Assembly: GCA_964347045.1 (NCBI GenBank)
Contig: CAYFXC010000003.1
Coordinates: forward strand, 38,701 to 102,700
Source: an uncultured archaeon
GTDB lineage: Archaea; Asgardarchaeota; Hermodarchaeia; Hermodarchaeales; Hermodarchaeaceae
Direction of reading: 5' to 3'
Length of the DNA stretch: 64,000 bases
A program made the translations under genes and the position numbers. Position 1 is the stretch's first letter. The number at the start of each line of letters is the position of its first letter. Shown in pieces: positions 53,857-63,771 of this stretch. A model generated the notes under the pieces. It was not told where the DNA came from. It saw only the letters and a program-made list of their open reading frames with translations, and ran no database searches.

Positions 53857-55062
53857 TTAACGGCGCCAAGCTTTGATTCGGTTCCGTTCTTCTCGACTCT
53901 TCTCTTGGAACCATGCCCAGGGCTTCTCTTCTTGCTTCCCATCGGGGTATGAAAGTATAATTCGGTCAGTGCAGGAGAAGCAGGGGTCTATCGAAGCCAG
54001 GGCGATGGGGATGTCGGCGATTTTGCCGCCTTTGAGCATTTCGATGACGCTGGGGATGTTGGCGTAGGTGGGGGCGCGGGCTTTGTGGCGTTCGGGTTTG
54101 TCGGTGCCGTTGCTGACGACGTAGTGGAGGACTTCGCCGCGGGGGGCTTCGAAGGTGCTGAGGGCGTGGCCGGGTGGGATGCGGCGGGGGGTGCGGGTGC
54201 TGATGTCGCCTGTGGGGAGGGTGGTGAGCCAGTGGGTGACGGTGGTGCAGGCGTCGAGGGTTTCGAGCATGCGGACGACGACGCGGCCGGCGACGTCGCA
54301 CATGTCGGAGGTGCGGACTTCCCAGGTGGTGCCGAGGGTTTCTTGGTAGGGGGTGCGGGGTTGGGTGGCGCGGACGTCCCAGTCGATGTTGGAGGCGCGG
54401 GCGGTGGGTCCGGTGGCGCAGAGGGCTTTGCCGACGTCGGTTTTGAGGATGCCGACGCCGATGGCGCGGTCGAGGATCGTTTGTTCGGCTAACACGAGTT
54501 TGATGTAGTGGTTGACGCGGTCTTTGATTTTTTCCAGGCGGTCTACCATGCTGGGGATTTGGCTTTTCTCGATGTCGTGGCGGACGCCGCCGATGATGTT
54601 GTTGGCGTAGTTGACGCGGTTCCCACAGATTTCTTCGATCATGTCCATGCTTAATTCGCGGTCCCGCCAGGAATAATGGAACAGGGTATCCCAGCCGATT
54701 TCGTGGCCGGCTATGCCGAGCCAGAGGATGTGGCTGTGGATGCGGTTGAGCTCGTTCATGATGGCACGAATGTACAAACCCCGTTTGGGAACATCCAAGT
54801 CCAGAATCTCTTCGACGGCTTGAACATATGTTGTGGTGTGGGCTTGAGAGCAAATCCCGCAAATGCGTTCGGCGAGGTAAATGTTTTGGCTAAAACTTCG
54901 ACTTTCAAAGGCTTTTTCGATGCCGCGATGGACATAGCCGATTCGCGCTTCGACGTCGACAACAATTTCTCCGTCGACGGTGATGGTGAAGTTTTCCGGC
55001 TCCTTGAGTGCGGGGTGTTGGGGACCGATGGGGATGGTCATCGTTGTGGGTGGTTTAGCCAT
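53857..55062 (-). CDS. Group 4 [NiFe]-hydrogenase large subunit (HycE/EchE/MbhL-like)
   Basis: GPQHP, HRGIEK, L1 ERICGICS.AH, EAPRGE, L2 DPCFSCTDR plus 34-aa C-terminal extension. Confidence 0.94.
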   Translation of the reverse strand: MAKPPTTMTIPIGPQHPALKEPENFTITVDGEIVVDVEARIGYVHRGIEKAFESRSFSQNIYLAERICGICSQAHTTTYVQAVEEILDLDVPKRGLYIRAIMNELNRIHSHILWLGIAGHEIGWDTLFHYSWRDRELSMDMIEEICGNRVNYANNIIGGVRHDIEKSQIPSMVDRLEKIKDRVNHYIKLVLAEQTILDRAIGVGILKTDVGKALCATGPTARASNIDWDVRATQPRTPYQETLGTTWEVRTSDMCDVAGRVVVRMLETLDACTTVTHWLTTLPTGDISTRTPRRIPPGHALSTFEAPRGEVLHYVVSNGTDKPERHKARAPTYANIPSVIEMLKGGKIADIPIALASIDPCFSCTDRIILSYPDGKQEEKPWAWFQEKSREERNRIKAWRR

Positions 55063-55113: not shown

Positions 55114-56355
55114 TTCCTTAAGAAATTAACCGTCAAACAAAGTTATACCCGGCTTTATATACCACGGCTGGGCTTTGAAGACCATCAACGAGGCCGAAAT
55201 GATTCCAAACTTTGAGGTTAGATTGCTCTGTAAGAGTGGTTGGATGGGTGTCCCACATTTCTTTGAATCGAGAAAAAGCATGGTATTCAAAATGCAAAAG
55301 ATTAGTTGTTTGGTTTTTTAGATAGGCGTGTGTAGCCGTAGATAATGACTAAGGTGATGCTGTAGATGGAGTACAGTATAATGATAGCAAGAAAGTACCA
55401 TTGTAACTGAATGAGACCTAAGATTTCTACGAATAGGGCAAGTGAGAAGTTGAACGAAGCGTGGAAAATAATGGCGCCCAATACGCTGCCATTGGTGTTA
55501 TTTACAATCCATGTGATAATGATGGATATGAACACAATTAATATGATGAAACCTAGAAAATTAAGGAAATCAAATTGTCCCTCCTCAAGTCCAAGTAGCA
55601 GATAAATGGGTAAATGCCAGAATCCCCAGAATACCCCAAGAATGAGGCTTGACCCTAAGGCGTTAAACCGTGATTGCAGGCGTGGTAATGCGAATCCCCG
55701 CCAACCCAGTTCTTCTCCAGTAGCACCAATCACCACACTACCAATTAACCAAAACAAACCAATAATCCCGTCAAAGGGCATATGAGGTCCAGGGATTGGA
55801 TTGCCAAGACCTATGTATAGCCCTATGGTAAGAAGAGCAATCGCGAAAGGAGAAAAAGCTGCAAGATACCAACCAATTCCGATTCTCCATATCCCCATTT
55901 TTCCTACTAATTTCCTGATTCCGTTCCATTCTTTCAGAATTAATAATATCACGATGAATGCGGCAATGCTTGGAGCCCAGGGAGGAAGAAGTTGGAGCAC
56001 AGGAAGTGGTATTACTACCGCAATACCACTTGCCCCAATAAAAAGTACAAAAGTTAGAACAAAGAACCACAAGAGAACAGATCCACTCGAGGATATCCGT
56101 GTTTCAGTGGCGGTCGTTTCAAGTGTCATAATATTTCAAGGCAAAACAATTGAAAGTTATTCAAATACCTTCATAAACCGGCTAGTTCAGAATTTTCTAT
56201 GACAAATCTAACCTTCTTTACAAGTTTTATTACTGTAACCTAGGTGTTGGTCTGAAAAATTTCGAAACGATCTATTGTCTGGCTTTTTGGTACCAAGGTA
56301 ATTTGGATTTGGCCAATGGTTTCCCTAAGAAATTAACTGTCAGACTATGATATAC
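55114..56355. repeat. 35-bp imperfect direct repeats (55114-55148, 56321-56355) flanking the CPBP gene
   Basis: ttcc.taagaaattaac.gtca.ac.a.g.tatac, 29/35 identical. Confidence 0.75.
55302..56129 (-). CDS. CPBP (type II CAAX/Abi) intramembrane metalloprotease
   Basis: EELGWRG, WGFWHLP, HASFN motifs. Confidence 0.92.
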   Translation of the reverse strand: MTLETTATETRISSSGSVLLWFFVLTFVLFIGASGIAVVIPLPVLQLLPPWAPSIAAFIVILLILKEWNGIRKLVGKMGIWRIGIGWYLAAFSPFAIALLTIGLYIGLGNPIPGPHMPFDGIIGLFWLIGSVVIGATGEELGWRGFALPRLQSRFNALGSSLILGVFWGFWHLPIYLLLGLEEGQFDFLNFLGFIILIVFISIIITWIVNNTNGSVLGAIIFHASFNFSLALFVEILGLIQLQWYFLAIIILYSIYSITLVIIYGYTRLSKKPNN

Positions 56356-57253: not shown

Positions 57254-59650
57254 ATGCCTGAATTAACACCAAACCAACTTCGCGCCAGATGTAAATCAAA
57301 GGACTTTGAATGCAAAACGAGTGCTGAGCTATCTCTCCTAGAAGGGGTCGTGGGTCAACCACGGGCTCTAAACGCGCTAAAATTTGGTTTAGAGATTCCC
57401 GATAAAGGTTTTAACATTTATGTGGCTGGAAGCCCAGGCACAGGTCGACACACGGCGACGAAACGGTACCTTGAAGAACTTAAGGCTCAACTGCGTGAAG
57501 TCCCTTCAGATTGGTGTTATGTGACCAATTATAAGAATCAGTTCAGACCGAAAGCCTTGGAGTTTCCTGCCGGAATGGGGAAGGTGTTTGTTGCGAAGAT
57601 TGATCAATTTATCGAGGCGGCGCGAACATCGATTCAACGAATGTTGGAAAGCGAAGAATACGCTCAGCAGCGTGAAGAACTTACTCGTTCGTTTGAAACT
57701 CAACGAGATGAATTAACTGAAGAGATGCGTGGAAAAGCTCAAGATGCTGGCTTTATGTTGCAAGGAACACAGACGGGATTGCTGATGGTGCCAGTAATTC
57801 AAGGAAAACCGATTGGACCTGATATGATTCCTAAGTTGAAGCCCGAAGTTCGGAAGGAAATTGAAGCTAAACGGAACGCCCTTGAAACTGAGCTTCGTTC
57901 GGCTTTTCGAAAATTACGCCAGCTCGAACGAGATTTATTTGAACAGCTTCGTCAAATGGAAGAAAAGGCTGTGCGCTTTACACTTGAACCATTAATCAAC
58001 GAAATTGAAGAAGAATTCACTGGCAATGAAAAATCCGTGAGCTGGATTAACGAATTAGCTGATGATATGATTGAAAATTTGAATCAATTCATTGGGCGAC
58101 AACCTCAAGGGATGCCTCCTGAGCTTCTGATGCGCATGCCCTCACCTGAAGATTTTGCCAATCGCTATAAAGTCAATCTAATTGTGGATAACTCAGAAAT
58201 AGAAGGTGCTCCGGTAGTTACTGTAACTAATGCTGCGTATAATCGTCTCTTTGGGTTAATTGAAAAAGAGCCCCGATTTGGTGCGTTGGTAACAGATACT
58301 ACTATGATTCGTGGAGGTTATTTACATCAGGCAAATGGTGGTTATATTGTAATTCCGGTTCGTGAACTTCTAATGGCACCTGCATCATATCAGGCATTGA
58401 AACGGGCTTTACAAAATGATCAGATTGTCATTGAGGAAGCCTCAGAAGCAATGGGGTTTCTTACTGTGAAAACATTACATCCTGAGCCAATACCACTGAA
58501 AATAAAGGTAGTTTTGATTGGTGAGCCACTGTGGTATCAGCAATTGTATCAGTTAGATCCTGATTTTCGTGAATTGTTCAAAGTTAAAGCAGATTTTGAT
58601 ACATCCATGGAACGCAATGAACAAACTGTCAAAATCTATGGAGACTTTGTTTGTACACTCACTGAAAAAGAAAATCTTTTGTCGCTTGATGCTGAAGCGA
58701 TTGCGGAAGTAGTCGATTTCAGTTCAAGACTAGCGGATGATCAAAATAAACTGTCAACCCGTTTTGATATTGTCGCAGACATTATCCGCGAAGCAAACTT
58801 CTATGCAAAGAAATCTGGGAAAAATACAATTGGTTTATCGTATATCAAAAAGACCGTGGATGAACGGTTCTTCCGCTCGAGTTTGTATGCTGAGAAAGTT
58901 CGTGAATATATCAAGAAAGGTGTCATTTTAATAGACACAAAGGGTGAAAAAGTCGGGCAAATCAATGGCTTGTCCGTGCTTTCTCTAGGAGATTTTAGTT
59001 TTGGGCAACCTTCGCGTATCACTGCTACAGTCGCACCGGGGCGGGGACAAGTCATAGATATTGAACGTGAAGCACAACTCAGTGGACCAATCCAAATTAA
59101 AGGGGTGCAAATCCTCACAGGATTTCTTCATGAAGTATTTGGCCAAGACAAACCCTTGAGCCTTTTAGCTCGTATTACCTTCGAACAAAGTTATGGTGGA
59201 GTTGATGGTGACAGTGCAAGTAGCACTGAGTTATATGCCATGCTCTCGGCGTTATCCGATGTTCCGATTCAACAACGATTTGCTGTCACGGGTTCAGTCA
59301 ACCAACATGGACACGTCCAAGCAATCGGTGGAGTAAATCAGAAAATTGAGGGCTATTTTGCTGTTTGTAAGGAAATGGGCTTAACTGGTGACCAAGGAGT
59401 GTTGGTTCCTGAATCAAACGTACAAAATCTCATGTTGAAAGATGAAGTGATTGAGGCTGTACAAGCTGCTAAGTTTCACATCTACTCGGTGAGAACCATC
59501 GAGGAAGGAATTGAATTGCTCACAGGTGTTCCTGCGGGTAAAACGCAAGCAGATGGAGCCTATCCTGAGAATTCGATATTCGGGCGTGTCGATAAACGGT
59601 TACAGGAAATGGCCAATATCATGCGAGAACATAATCGTCCCGCTAACTAA
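57254..59650 (+). CDS. lonC: LonC-type Lon-like protease
   Basis: GQPRA, degenerate Walker A GSPGTGR, coiled-coil insertion, ANGG, GDSAS Ser and NQKIEG Lys dyad. Confidence 0.9.
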   Translation: MPELTPNQLRARCKSKDFECKTSAELSLLEGVVGQPRALNALKFGLEIPDKGFNIYVAGSPGTGRHTATKRYLEELKAQLREVPSDWCYVTNYKNQFRPKALEFPAGMGKVFVAKIDQFIEAARTSIQRMLESEEYAQQREELTRSFETQRDELTEEMRGKAQDAGFMLQGTQTGLLMVPVIQGKPIGPDMIPKLKPEVRKEIEAKRNALETELRSAFRKLRQLERDLFEQLRQMEEKAVRFTLEPLINEIEEEFTGNEKSVSWINELADDMIENLNQFIGRQPQGMPPELLMRMPSPEDFANRYKVNLIVDNSEIEGAPVVTVTNAAYNRLFGLIEKEPRFGALVTDTTMIRGGYLHQANGGYIVIPVRELLMAPASYQALKRALQNDQIVIEEASEAMGFLTVKTLHPEPIPLKIKVVLIGEPLWYQQLYQLDPDFRELFKVKADFDTSMERNEQTVKIYGDFVCTLTEKENLLSLDAEAIAEVVDFSSRLADDQNKLSTRFDIVADIIREANFYAKKSGKNTIGLSYIKKTVDERFFRSSLYAEKVREYIKKGVILIDTKGEKVGQINGLSVLSLGDFSFGQPSRITATVAPGRGQVIDIEREAQLSGPIQIKGVQILTGFLHEVFGQDKPLSLLARITFEQSYGGVDGDSASSTELYAMLSALSDVPIQQRFAVTGSVNQHGHVQAIGGVNQKIEGYFAVCKEMGLTGDQGVLVPESNVQNLMLKDEVIEAVQAAKFHIYSVRTIEEGIELLTGVPAGKTQADGAYPENSIFGRVDKRLQEMANIMREHNRPAN

Positions 59651-59709: not shown

Positions 59710-62583
59710 ATGTCTTCCAGCGGAGAGACTCAACTTGCACCAAAGACCATTCTCAACCCACACAGTCAGTCAGTCTCCAAAATAGCTCAACAACTGAACA
59801 CCGATTTAAATCATGGACTTATGAGTGGTGAAGCACAAAGACGTTTAGAGTTCTTTGGACCAAATCAGCTCCCCAAGATTCGAGGTTCCTTTTGGCGTGT
59901 ATACCTCGCTCCAATTCTTAATGGTTTAATCCTCATCTATTTGGTTGTAATTGTTATCTTATCTGCCATTGTCATCTTCTTTAACACACCAGGAACCTCC
60001 AATGTAATAATCTGGATCATTATCATCGCCTTTAACGCATTCTTAGCCATTATTCAACAATTTCGGGCGCAGAAGAAATTGGAAGCGCTCCATTCGTTGA
60101 CGACTGATACAACAATGGTTATACGAGAAGGAATAAAGAGTGAAATTCCTGCGCACACGGTTGTTCCTGGCGATATAGTCGTATTAGCACAAGGTGACCG
60201 AATACCTGCAGATGGACGGCTTTTAGAAGCAAATCAACTCACCTCTGTGGAAGCCTCACTAACTGGTGAAAGTGCCCCTGTCACAAAAATTGTTTCACAT
60301 TCCCCCTTAGAATTAGAAACACCACTACATGAACGCTATAATATGGTTTATAGTGGGACATATGTAGCTACAGGTTCAGGTAACTTTGTTGTAACGGGAA
60401 CGGGGGAAGCAACTGAAATTGGGGAAATAAGTCAAGGTTTGGAAACATTAAACACCGGGGATATTCCACTTCGCCGGAAAGTCAACCGCCTAGCAATTTA
60501 CCTTGGAGCCGCTGCCATTTTTCTAGCTGTGTTAGGTTTTGCTTCATACCTAGTCTTCCCCCGACCTATTGATGGTGTCATTCTTACTCCACCTGAAGTT
60601 GCTGTTGAAGCAATAATTAACGCGATGACAGTGATGCCGATTAATATCCCTCTCCTTACCACTATTGTCTTACTCACAGGGGTATTAGCCATGGCCGGTG
60701 TCGGTGTCATTGTTAGTGATCTTTCTGCCGTTGAGAGTTTGGGTCGGGTTAGCATAATCTGTACAGATAAAACCGGTACCCTCACCCGCAGCGAGATGAT
60801 GGTAAGCCTGATCTGGGATTCCTCTCATCTTTTTCAAGTTACCGGCGAAGGCTTTGAACCCAAAGGGGAGATTTTACTTGTTAGTGATCCTAACTCCAAC
60901 CCAAATGTTGTATCCGCGTCATCAATTGAAATTGAAGATTATAACCAACTGGCATTATTAATTCGGGCTGGAGTGCTCAATAATGATGCCCAAATCGTGC
61001 AAGAAGAAGCAACGGAAGGTGGAACATTACAATGGCGGGCTATAGGTGATCCAACTGAGGCGGCTCTCCTCGTCTTACTCAATAAGAGCGGCATTGACGA
61101 AAGTTCCTTACGGGCCGCATACACCTTCAAACAAGATTATCCCTTCGATTCTCGGCTCAAACGAATGACACGGATATTTTCTCATCCAGAAGGTGGATAC
61201 ATTGCCTTCATTAAAGGAGCGACTGATATTTTGCTTTCGCGATGTAAACAAATAGGCGATGATCGGAAAGCTCAGCGGCTCACTAAGAAACAAGCCAAAG
61301 AAATTGAGCGTTATGCCAATAAATTTGCCGCTGGGGGTTATCGCGTTCTTTCCTTTGCCATCCGACGATTTAATCAGTTGCCTAAAGGTCGAGGACAAGC
61401 CCTCAGAAAGAATATCGAGAAGAATCTGACATTTGTGGGGTTTGTATGTATTGTAGATCCACCTCGTGAAGGGGTTCGTGAAGCAGTCGTTGAGGTGTCC
61501 AATGCAGGCGTTAAAACTGTCATGATCACTGGTGATGCTGCAGCGACCGCGGAAACTATTGGCCGACAACTAGCAATCGTTGGAAAAGATGATCTTGTTA
61601 TCGAAGGCAAAGATGCTACTAATGTATCTGATGAAAAATTCGATCGAGTAAGCGTTTTTGCACGAGTTGATCCAGAAGATAAGCAAATTATTGTTGAACG
61701 CTACAAGAAAGCAAAACGTGCTGTCGCTGTTACTGGCGATGGCGTTAACGACGCGCTCGCTTTAAGCATGAGTGATGTTGGAATTGCCATGGGAATCACT
61801 GGTACAGATGTGGCAAAAGAAGCATCAGACATGATCATCGCTGATGATAGCTATAATTCAATCGTGGACGGCGTTCGTCAGGGTCGAGGGCTCTTCAGCA
61901 AGATTCGGGTGATGATCTTTTTCTATATTTGTATTAATGTTGGTGAATCTATTCTTTTCTTTGGAACATTTCTCCTAGGAATCCCCTTCCTTACACCAAC
62001 TCAACACATCTTTTTGACTATCTCTAGCCACACATGGCCTGGTCTTGCTTTAGTGTTTGATCGTACGGCAAAATATATCATGGAGGAAAAGCCCCGTGAC
62101 ACTGAATCCATTATCACAAAACGAATTGGATATTATCTGCTCCTAAATGCGCTACTCATTTTCATTGGTGCAGCAAGTGCATTCTATTTCACCTTTAGTT
62201 CCTTGCTTCTCGGAAGCACCTTTCTTGAGCCATATAGTCCAGAGGCTTTTTACAAAAGCCTTACAATGACTATAGCTGTTCTCCTCTTTGCAGAATCCCT
62301 GATGATTTTAAGCATTCGCCGAATTAACCAATCCTTATGGCGTTCAATTCGCTTTGAAAGCTTTTGGCTTATTTATATCCTGATCGGACTTGTCTTTCTC
62401 ATGTTTGCGGGGTTGATGTATATCCCCGAAGTCAATATCTTCCTAGCATCTCTGGGTATCGATTTTCAATTCATACCATTAGCTCCCATCGACTGGCTTG
62501 TTACGTTCCTTCTTGCATCGCCAGCAATCTTCGGTATGGAAGCTGTAAAATGGGTTTGCCGTAAACGAGGTATCATTTTCTAA
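59710..62583 (+). CDS. P-type ATPase on a P2A scaffold with atypical transport site
   Basis: TGES, DKTGT, KGA, DPPR, TGD, GDGVND; TM4 reads PINIP rather than PEGLP. Confidence 0.92.
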   Translation: MSSSGETQLAPKTILNPHSQSVSKIAQQLNTDLNHGLMSGEAQRRLEFFGPNQLPKIRGSFWRVYLAPILNGLILIYLVVIVILSAIVIFFNTPGTSNVIIWIIIIAFNAFLAIIQQFRAQKKLEALHSLTTDTTMVIREGIKSEIPAHTVVPGDIVVLAQGDRIPADGRLLEANQLTSVEASLTGESAPVTKIVSHSPLELETPLHERYNMVYSGTYVATGSGNFVVTGTGEATEIGEISQGLETLNTGDIPLRRKVNRLAIYLGAAAIFLAVLGFASYLVFPRPIDGVILTPPEVAVEAIINAMTVMPINIPLLTTIVLLTGVLAMAGVGVIVSDLSAVESLGRVSIICTDKTGTLTRSEMMVSLIWDSSHLFQVTGEGFEPKGEILLVSDPNSNPNVVSASSIEIEDYNQLALLIRAGVLNNDAQIVQEEATEGGTLQWRAIGDPTEAALLVLLNKSGIDESSLRAAYTFKQDYPFDSRLKRMTRIFSHPEGGYIAFIKGATDILLSRCKQIGDDRKAQRLTKKQAKEIERYANKFAAGGYRVLSFAIRRFNQLPKGRGQALRKNIEKNLTFVGFVCIVDPPREGVREAVVEVSNAGVKTVMITGDAAATAETIGRQLAIVGKDDLVIEGKDATNVSDEKFDRVSVFARVDPEDKQIIVERYKKAKRAVAVTGDGVNDALALSMSDVGIAMGITGTDVAKEASDMIIADDSYNSIVDGVRQGRGLFSKIRVMIFFYICINVGESILFFGTFLLGIPFLTPTQHIFLTISSHTWPGLALVFDRTAKYIMEEKPRDTESIITKRIGYYLLLNALLIFIGAASAFYFTFSSLLLGSTFLEPYSPEAFYKSLTMTIAVLLFAESLMILSIRRINQSLWRSIRFESFWLIYILIGLVFLMFAGLMYIPEVNIFLASLGIDFQFIPLAPIDWLVTFLLASPAIFGMEAVKWVCRKRGIIF

Positions 62584-62658
62584 GAATTGATACCCTTAAC
62601 ACAAACTTTTTTTTCTCTCATACTTGTACACCAAGAACAATTTCAAGGTGAACATATT

Positions 62659-63771
62659 ATGGTTGATGAGCGCATTTCTCGGCTAGCTCAACTTACTGTT
62701 GAATATTCTCTCGACGTCAAAAAGGGTGATTTGGTTGGTGTCAGTGCACCCGCATTCGCTGAGCCTCTGGTCGTTGAATTAACCAGAGAAATCATGAAAG
62801 CTGGAGGGCATCCTTTTACTCGTATTTATCTTCCGCGTTCTCAAGAAATCTTCTACAGATATGCCCAAGACCACCAACTCGACTATCTTAACCCACTCCT
62901 TCTTGACATGGTTGATAAGCTTGACAACTACATCGTCATCTTCTCATCTGATAACCGGAAAGCCATGACTAATGTGGATCCAGCTAAACAAGCTCGTGTT
63001 GCCAAAGCGCAAACTGAACTCAATAAAAGATTCACAGCTCGACTTAAACAGGGTTGGTATGCTCTAATCCCTTATCCTTCAGCAAGCCTCGCGCAAGAAG
63101 GCAACATGGGAACTGAAGAATACGAAGATTTTGTTTATAGTGCTTGTCTAGTTGACAAACCCAACCCTGTCAAACTCTGGAAACAAATTAGTAACAAACA
63201 AGCGAAAATTACGGCGTATCTGAATTCAAAAAATATCCTCCGTGTTATAGGCGACGATATCGACTTGACAGCGAAAATCACTGGCCGAAACTGGGTCAAT
63301 GCAGACGGACACATGAATATGCCTGATGGCGAGATTTTTACAACGCCTCTTGAAGACAGTGTTGAGGGAACGATTCGCTTTTCCTATCCTGGTATCTTTA
63401 TGGGTAAGGAAGTTGAAGATATCTCATTAACTTTTAAGAAAGGCGTGGTAGCAAAAGCTACTGCTGAAAAAGGGCAAGATCTCCTTAATCATATTCTTGG
63501 GATTGACGAAGGTGCAAAGCGATTAGGAGAGTTCGCGATCGGAACGAATCCTGGTATAACGAAATTTACAAAAAACATATTGTTTGACGAGAAACTAACG
63601 GGAACCATTCACTGTGCTCTCGGAAACGCATTCGAAGAAAGTGGAGGGAAAAACGAATCAGCGATACACTGGGATATTCTCGCGGATATGTCTAAGGGAG
63701 GAAAAATCTTCGCAGATGATGAACTATTCTATAAGAATGGCAAGTTTTTGATGAAAGTAATTGATCAATGA
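62659..63771 (+). CDS. M29 (AmpS/AmpT) aminopeptidase
   Basis: NMPDGEIFT, LGEFAIG, ILFDEK..GTIH.ALG, SAIHWD. Confidence 0.93.
   Translation: MVDERISRLAQLTVEYSLDVKKGDLVGVSAPAFAEPLVVELTREIMKAGGHPFTRIYLPRSQEIFYRYAQDHQLDYLNPLLLDMVDKLDNYIVIFSSDNRKAMTNVDPAKQARVAKAQTELNKRFTARLKQGWYALIPYPSASLAQEGNMGTEEYEDFVYSACLVDKPNPVKLWKQISNKQAKITAYLNSKNILRVIGDDIDLTAKITGRNWVNADGHMNMPDGEIFTTPLEDSVEGTIRFSYPGIFMGKEVEDISLTFKKGVVAKATAEKGQDLLNHILGIDEGAKRLGEFAIGTNPGITKFTKNILFDEKLTGTIHCALGNAFEESGGKNESAIHWDILADMSKGGKIFADDELFYKNGKFLMKVIDQ

Follow-up and report, generated by a model that had tools for sequence, protein, structure and literature searches.

What does a P-type ATPase carry when its catalytic machinery is intact and its membrane ion site has been rebuilt? 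This question is raised by a gene at positions 59710..62583 (+ strand) of a 64,000-nucleotide stretch of DNA from an uncultured Asgard archaeon of the Hermodarchaeia (assembly GCA_964347045.1, contig CAYFXC010000003.1), the whole of which was analyzed and is called the window here. The gene is a complete open reading frame of 957 codons, and its product is referred to as P0001. An initial annotation described a pump resembling SERCA with altered transmembrane (TM) helices 4 and 6, and proposed a new substrate class, possibly lipid, and a possible intermediate toward the eukaryotic P4 lipid flippases. We found that the gene is intact, that the residues of its membrane site are strictly conserved in relatives, and that the clade to which it belongs is separate from the canonical Ca2+ pumps and is not P4- or P5-like. 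To judge from these comparisons, P0001 is likely to be a functional pump of P2 architecture that represents a distinct Asgard subfamily and exports a small cation, most likely not Ca2+, through a single site.

Results

Catalytic machinery and register of the ion site

P0001 contains five Pfam domains (Cation_ATPase_N, E1-E2_ATPase, Cation_ATPase, Hydrolase, and Cation_ATPase_C), and it scored 248 bits with the superfamily profile TIGR01494 (HAD-IC), which has a cut-off of 62 and places it among the P-type ATPases. The catalytic motifs, which the initial annotation had called intact, were all found on the + strand. A motif search located the A-domain dephosphorylation motif TGES at residues 185–188 (nucleotides 60262-60273); in alignment A2, G186 and E187 were invariant, and T185 and S188 were at least 90% conserved. 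By its letters this is the P2/P3-type motif and not the P4 motif with Asp, as had been proposed when TGES was contrasted with DGET. The phosphorylation motif DKTGT lies at residues 353–357 (60766..60780), with D353, K354, G356, and T357 invariant in A2, and the motifs of the N- and P-domains, KGA (502–504), DPPR (583–586), TGD (607–609), and GDGVND (676–681), which together span 61213..61752, also fall in invariant columns of this alignment. With an intact reading frame and every motif conserved, P0001 is not a decayed copy, and the possibility of a degenerate gene or pseudogene was excluded.

In SERCA, site I consists of N768, E771, T799, D800, and E908, and site II of E309, N796, D800, and TM4 carbonyls (PMC10779151). 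To place P0001 on this scheme, we used two alignments. The HMMER alignment with Listeria LMCA1 ran end to end (E 3.5e-117) and set 'mpinipll' on 'ipealssi' in TM4, 'icinvgesi' on 'fagnlgaii' in TM5, and 'fltisshtwpgla' on 'finlvndslpaia' in TM6. The canonical P2A paralogue of the same genome, which reads AIPEGLPAV, SCNAGE, and INLVTDGLPALA, yielded the same register.

The unwound TM4 segment M-T-V-M-P-I-N-I-P was placed by the alignments and the structural model at residues 306–314 (60625..60651), with PINIP at 310–314 (60637-60651), in agreement with the coordinates first annotated. NVGE of TM5 occupies residues 743–746 (61936-61947), at the positions of SERCA N768 and E771 by the alignment with the canonical paralogue. 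The TM6 segment QHIFLTISSHTWP, which contains T-I-S-S-H, occupies residues 765–777 (62002-62040). Glu862 of TM8 (62293..62295) stands at the position of E908 and faces the Arg of LMCA1 'lilaRtlq' and a Gln in the canonical paralogue.

Three SERCA ligands are thus kept in P0001, N768 as Asn743, E771 as Glu746, and E908 as Glu862. At the other positions E309 corresponds to Ile311, G310 to Asn312, A305 to Thr307, N796 to Thr770, T799 to Ser773, and D800 to His774. Because LMCA1 and the canonical paralogue give one and the same register, E309→I, G310→N, N796→T, T799→S, and D800→H are genuine substitutions. The TM4, TM5, TM6, and TM8 features of the initial annotation were thus all present in the translation, the substitutions E309I, N796T, and D800H were reproduced by both alignments, and the proposed loss of Ca2+ site II was borne out, as the canonical ligands of this site are absent while the catalytic motifs are intact.

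Conservation of the rebuilt site

The stretch PINIPLLTT was identical in the best 120 homologues, which have between 47% and 87% identity, and the conservation of the TM4 motif is therefore far beyond chance. These orthologues keep PINIP, and the PEGL pattern of a degenerate copy was not seen among them. Since this is so, the transport site has been rewired under selection, and its substrate is probably not handled in the manner of SERCA.

A residue census was made on 169 distinct clade members. At the position of E309 (residue 311) the residue was always hydrophobic (Ile in 158, Phe in 4, Val in 3, Trp in 2, and Leu and Met in 1 each) and was acidic in 0/169. Elsewhere in TM4, P310 was found in all 169, N312 (the G310 position) in 166, and P314 in 164. 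The two TM5 positions were Asn (N768) in 165/169 and Glu (E771) in 169/169, His occupied the D800 position of TM6 in 168/169, and Glu the E908 position of TM8 in 167/169. The T799 position was Thr in 95 and Ser in 37, and the N796 position was variable and largely hydrophobic (for example, Val in 86, Thr in 30, and Phe in 15). The polar quintet of Asn312, Asn743, Glu746, His774, and Glu862 is thus near-invariant, and the hydrophobic plug at the E309 position is less constrained. Since position 311 varies while the polar and charged set is nearly fixed, this Asn/Asn/Glu/His/Glu set is, on the evidence of the census, the signature of an ion-coordinating site and not of a lipid groove.

When 1.84 billion cluster representatives were searched, the clade grew to approximately 40 clusters at 50% identity, with the signature P-[ILVFWM]-N-x-[PV] in TM4, N..E in TM5, and His in TM6. 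The next-best matches beyond the clade changed sharply to PEGLP / N..E / NLVTD.

Phylogeny and subfamily profiles

With the P1B pumps of the same genome as root, a maximum-likelihood tree (quick search, LG+G4) was made from 65 rows. The 33 clade rows were monophyletic, with a Shimodaira–Hasegawa-like approximate likelihood-ratio (SH-aLRT) support of 98, and so were the 27 canonical PEGL rows (SH-aLRT 96), which include the genome's own two PEGL pumps. Since both groups were separately monophyletic, the clade branches, to judge from this tree, as a sister to the canonical pumps that were sampled and not as a derived twig within them. Two deep PW[NS]FP sequences with the TM6 His and N..E took no settled place in the tree.

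P0001 was scored against the NCBIfam equivalog profiles of the described subfamilies. It reached 423 bits with the PMR1-type profile (TIGR01522; cut-off 798), 407 with SERCA (TIGR01116; 703), 400 with P2D (TIGR01523; 645), 376 with PMCA (507), 292 with P3A (TIGR01647; 615.5), 204 with P5 (TIGR01657; 618), and 84 with P4 (TIGR01652; 431). The best stretch for the P4 profile, residues 470–631, belongs to the cytoplasmic part. With the two P2A equivalogs (TIGR01116 and TIGR01522) clade members scored 378–521 bits, all under the cut-offs, and canonical pumps 658–778 bits; for the PMR1-type profile by itself the ranges were 423–521 and 700–778. The P3A profile gave 292–364 bits on the clade and 437–460 on canonical pumps, the P5 profile 204–241 and 236–276, and the P4 profile 84–123 and 91–110. 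For several clade members TIGR01523 was the second-best profile. Since the P4 and P5 scores are no higher on the clade than on ordinary Ca2+ pumps, the clade stands no nearer to either of these subfamilies than such pumps do, and the scores indicate that it has diverged from P2A without nearing another described subfamily.

The diagnostic motifs agree with the scores. P0001 lacks both the PEGL with E309 and the TM6 N-x-x-(T)-D of the P2A pumps, and it has His in place of the TM6 Asp of P3A and P2D. M-P-I-N-I-P has one Pro ahead of Ile and does not match the PP(E/D/A)LP of P5, and the combination of PINIP and His differs from the PEGL and Ile of the CtpE-type P6 pumps.

Predicted structure

An AlphaFold2 model of P0001, built from an alignment of 87 sequences, had a mean predicted local distance difference test score (pLDDT) of 87.1, a predicted template modeling score (pTM) of 0.81, and ten TM helices, with TM4 broken or unwound at residues 309–312. 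The model, Foldseek, and VIA all gave P0001 the P2 architecture with ten TM helices. The top Foldseek matches were SPCA1 (E2P), SERCA (E2), LMCA1, and Na,K-ATPase, with SPCA1 and SERCA at about 1e-60, and the best 50 contained no P4 or P5 entry. VIA comparison with all representatives, in which the ranks in part mirror conformational state, gave a Z score of 35.0 for PfATP4 (9n10; root-mean-square deviation 3.7 over 743 residues), 32.4 for SPCA1, 31.4 for SERCA2, 30.9 for both LMCA1 and AHA2 (5ksd), and 29.3 for MgtA; P4 flippases scored 24.8–28.1, P5B pumps 25.2–27.6, and P5A 21.7. The predicted fold thus matched P2 pumps best, not P4, and the ranks of the model lend no support to a P4- or P5-like membrane domain.

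Distribution and paralogues

In the phylum of the window (Asgard), 300 of 400 genomes had a clade-level match (E<=1e-150), as did 73 of 90 high-quality genomes and 64 of 85 genera. All named sequences among the best 120 homologues were Asgard (Promethearchaeota, Thor-, Hod-, Hermod-, or Lokiarchaeota), and the named deep clade members were Promethearchaeota or Helarchaeota. Taken together, these searches indicate a subfamily that is essentially restricted to Asgard archaea. A contig scan with the universal patterns C[TS]DKTGT and TGDG[VI]ND gave only canonical P2A pumps of 30–36% identity among the matches listed and was unusable for the distribution.

One clade member, P0126 (NCBI NIQ05978.1 and three others), carries the label 'Candidatus Korarchaeota archaeon'. 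A Korarchaeia-titled genome belongs to a phylum of which 43 genomes were searched, with no clade-level match (0/43), and the tree places P0126 among Asgard sequences; for these two reasons its label or binning is doubtful, and a range beyond Asgard on its account was rejected.

The genome that carries P0001 (2.58 Mb, 89% complete) encodes five other P-type ATPases: three P1B pumps (CPC, CPC, and CPH), one PEGLPA/NLVTDGLPA pump, and one PEGLI pump. Since a canonical PEGLP pump co-occurs with it, P0001 is an additional and differently specified pump and not the only Ca2+-type pump of the cell. The PEGLI paralogue (G000:C32, L005) is a second non-standard P2 pump, which has lost the usual Pro after Asp in its TM6 (NLVTDGMLDIA) and clusters in the tree with PEGLS and PSGLP sequences.

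The label given to the family in databases is 'Ca2+-transporting ATPase', and a survey of Asgard transporters lists orthologues of a 'putative Ca2+ ATPase' for each of the five proteomes (PMC7997004). A search of the ESM Atlas returned only generic P-type ATPase clusters. In the literature we found no paper on this set of motifs, and mentions of Asgard P-type or P4-ATPases were generic only.

Genomic context

In the window, a gene for a Lon-like AAA+ protease (LonC_helical, AAA_32, LonB LID, and Lon_C by Pfam; 57254..59650, + strand) lies 60 nt upstream of the pump gene, and a gene for an M29 aminopeptidase (Peptidase_M29, 1.7e-84 by Pfam; 62587..63771, + strand) lies 3 nt after the pump stop codon. 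We surveyed the neighborhoods of 20 loci from other genomes together with the window. The order Lon, pump, (glycosyltransferase), M29 was present in 5/5 loci of the window's own family f1, the window counted, and in 0/16 elsewhere; the operon-like arrangement is thus a lineage-specific linkage. In family f31 the pump is accompanied by a subtilase, a protein of 650 residues, and a ketopantoate hydroxymethyltransferase. Family f20 has two pumps in tandem, with genes for a GNAT, a DUF362 protein, a luciferase-like oxidoreductase, and a soluble Zn-ribbon protein around them. Across the surveyed loci, no partner subunit, membrane-protein neighbor, or substrate-related gene was found to be conserved. 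As the neighbors differ between lineages, the neighborhood was dropped as a clue to the substrate.

Some of these neighbors were observed to have features of their own. The 650-residue protein of family f31 (L127:4983-6935, − strand; counterparts in L125, L126, and L128) is encoded directly downstream of the pump and has a weak Pfam match to E3 UFM1-protein ligase 1 (PF09743, E 1.1e-5, 25.7 bits with a cut-off of 23.2); it could be a eukaryote-like signature protein. Tandem clade pumps occur in many Asgard genomes (L131-L140 of family f20, e.g. L132:6995-12855, and also G397:C86:1217-7489), one of the pair having PINIP and the other PINLP, with the TM6 His in both. At most of the tandem loci a soluble Zn-ribbon protein of approximately 280 residues is encoded beside the pumps, followed by a GNAT acetyltransferase; we read the N-terminus of this Zn-ribbon protein, which has no Pfam hit, as TFIIB-like. 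In the window itself, the genes upstream of Lon include one for a Rce1-like CAAX-type intramembrane protease (55302-56129, − strand), which lies just upstream of the Lon gene, and one for a NiFe-hydrogenase large-subunit or NuoD-like protein (Complex1_49kDa and NiFeSe_Hases; 53857-55062, − strand).

Discussion

The closest known systems are the P2A pumps. LMCA1 (6zhf/9euq), followed by SPCA1 (8iwt/7yag) and SERCA (SERCA1a/2), gave the best sequence matches, with E values from 3.5e-117 to 1e-86, and P2A pumps were also the top fold matches. They share with P0001 the ten TM helices, the N-terminal domain, TGES, DKTGT, GDGVND, the N..E of TM5, and the P-x-x-x-P break of TM4. The differences lie in the site itself (E309→Ile, G310→Asn, N796 lost, and D800→His), in the separate clade of the tree, and in equivalog scores of about half of the cut-offs. 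LMCA1 is the opposite of P0001 in that E309 and D800 are present and the E771 and E908 positions hold Ala and Arg, whereas P0001 keeps both site-I acids.

Among P2 cation pumps, a non-acidic residue in place of E309 has been seen before: the P2D pump NcENA1 has Ala there, in I341-P342-A343-S344 (PMC10779151). The P2D pumps (fungal ENA, PfATP4) resemble P0001 in this respect, and PfATP4 was its top VIA match, perhaps through a shared conformational state; however, ENA still has the TM6 Asp (D860 in NcENA1), where P0001 has His, and the P2D profile score of P0001 was far below the cut-off. The P6 ATPases, such as CtpE of M. tuberculosis, have kept PEGL and replaced the TM6 Asp by Ile (Palmgren 2023, PMC10654040). 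Like P0001 they are a prokaryotic P2-like lineage without the TM6 Asp, but P0001 has lost PEGL as well and has His in TM6. The same review considers it likely that more prokaryotic families of P-type ATPases will be characterized (PMC10654040).

If P0001 exports a small cation through one site, the following mechanism would account for it. Since all catalytic motifs are conserved, an ordinary E1/E2 phosphoenzyme cycle would be expected. Site II would be closed by the bulky hydrophobic residue at the E309 position, with the ligands N796 and D800 lost. The site-I carboxylates Glu746 and Glu862 and also Asn743 are retained, and the new His774 (D800) and Asn312 (G310) join them. In each cycle one small cation would be bound from the cytoplasm in a single Asn/Asn/Glu/His/Glu pocket, occluded, and released outside. 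Ion identity, transport direction, and stoichiometry are what we infer from the site, and export in particular would follow the behavior of P2 pumps.

An imidazole nitrogen is a poor ligand for Ca2+. Since two carboxylates would balance one divalent ion and imidazole disfavors Ca2+, our tentative choice of cargo would be a divalent metal other than Ca2+ and softer than it (Mn2+, Fe2+, Zn2+, Co2+, or Ni2+); H+, carried by a His/Glu relay, and a monovalent cation each seem unlikely, and a bulky or lipid substrate much more so. Several considerations weigh against the proposal of a single-site cation exporter and against this choice of ion. The ion would be chosen by coordination-chemistry reasoning, and His774 could be a built-in counter-charge instead of a ligand. 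The three P1B heavy-metal pumps of the genome weaken the need for another metal exporter, and no metal-, pH-, or ion-related gene was present among the conserved neighbors at the surveyed loci. Furthermore, the tree contained no named P2B, P2C, P2D, P3A, P4, or P5 references, and the position as sister to P2A is limited to the sampled sequences.

The possibility exists that P0001 is still a Ca2+ (or Ca2+/Mn2+) pump that uses a site-I-like pocket alone, the reverse of LMCA1 and SPCA, whose one remaining site is site II. The site-I ligands N768, E771, T799 (as Thr or Ser), and E908 are kept, the nearest solved relatives are Ca2+ pumps, and the database label says the same. However, D800, a ligand of both SERCA sites, is the His found almost throughout the clade, and the poor affinity of imidazole for Ca2+ counts against this explanation, as do the separate canonical PEGLP/NLVTD pump in the genome and the scores of about half of the cut-offs with all Ca2+-ATPase equivalogs; we regard it as quite unlikely. 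Somewhat less unlikely, but still improbable, is a proton pump with P3A-like logic, in which a His/Glu relay would replace the TM6 Asp acceptor. A hydrophobic residue at the E309 position occurs in plant and fungal H+-ATPases, and His and Glu are good proton carriers. P0001 would share the single-site logic of AHA2 and Pma1, its Z score to the plant H+-ATPase 5ksd is level with that to LMCA1, and its conserved His occupies the position of the P3A TM6 Asp that accepts the proton (PMC10654040). Nevertheless, this defining Asp is absent, the P3A profile showed no special affinity for the clade, on which it scored lower than on canonical P2A pumps, and two conserved carboxylates and two Asn exceed the needs of a one-proton site.

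It is also possible to see in P0001 an analogue of the lipid flippases (ATP8A1, Drs2, Dnf1, Neo1), or an intermediate toward eukaryotic P4, in which the TM4 Ile would serve as a hydrophobic gate like that of PISL. The Ile comes right after the TM4 Pro, the acidic ligands of site II are gone, the general P-type fold is shared, and an Asgard-specific clade would suit a pre-eukaryotic origin; for Ile364 of ATP8A2 the gate role is described as established (Vestergaard 2014, as given in PMC10654040). This Ile is nevertheless the only flippase-like trait of P0001 and is not diagnostic, since cation pumps of the P2D and P5B types also have a non-acidic residue at this position. In the clade it is the supposed gate residue that is not fixed, while the charged and polar ion-site set, which distinguishes P0001 from P4, is near-invariant. 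P-I-N-I-P is not P-I-S-L, the A-domain motif is TGES, the P4 profile scored the clade like ordinary PEGL pumps, the fold ranks P2 (Z 30–35) over P4 (Z 25–28), and no conserved membrane partner gene adjoins the pump at the surveyed loci. The CDC50/LEM3 profile PF03381 had no match in the genome, in a search where the control also matched no genome. On the motif, profile, and fold comparisons, it is very unlikely that P0001 is a flippase. What stood of the initially proposed new substrate class is the rewired site, with a substrate that is probably not SERCA-like; the lipid part found no support in the P4 profile, TGES, the variable gate, or the fold. Nor did the intermediate toward P4, as the P4 and P5 profiles scored no higher than on Ca2+ pumps and the fold is nearest to P2.

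Hardly more credible is a bulkier non-metal cargo (a polyamine or other organic cation, a peptide, or a helix) handled in a P5-like manner. In two lineages the pump has protease genes beside it (Lon-like and M29 in f1, a subtilase in f31), and P5B pumps likewise have no acid at the E309 position, where they read PPALP (PMC10654040). Against this, the neighbors vary by lineage and none is conserved phylum-wide, the P5 profile scored below its values on ordinary P2A pumps, and P0001 has no PP(E/A)LP motif, no N-terminal helices beyond the ten TM helices, and Z scores of only 21.7–27.6 to P5A and P5B. A related idea, that the new Asgard subfamily moves a substrate class new to pumps of P2 architecture, such as an organic cation, a lipid head-group, or a peptide in a neutral cavity lined by His and Asn, independently of eukaryotic P4 and P5, is in our view highly improbable.

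On present evidence, the pump has no bearing on the origin of the eukaryotic lipid flippases. Its significance lies elsewhere. The subfamilies of P-type ATPases are defined by the chemistry of the transport site, and a site of two Glu, one His, two Asn, and a hydrophobic plug has no counterpart among the P2A, P2D, P3A, P4, P5, and P6 pumps compared here. This site is carried by a large and strictly conserved clade, which most Asgard genomes contain and which has been assigned to none of the described subfamilies. Identification of the ion would add a new specificity class to the P-type ATPases, and it would also correct the blanket label 'Ca2+-transporting ATPase', on which arguments for Ca2+ signalling in Asgard archaea have drawn (PMC7997004).

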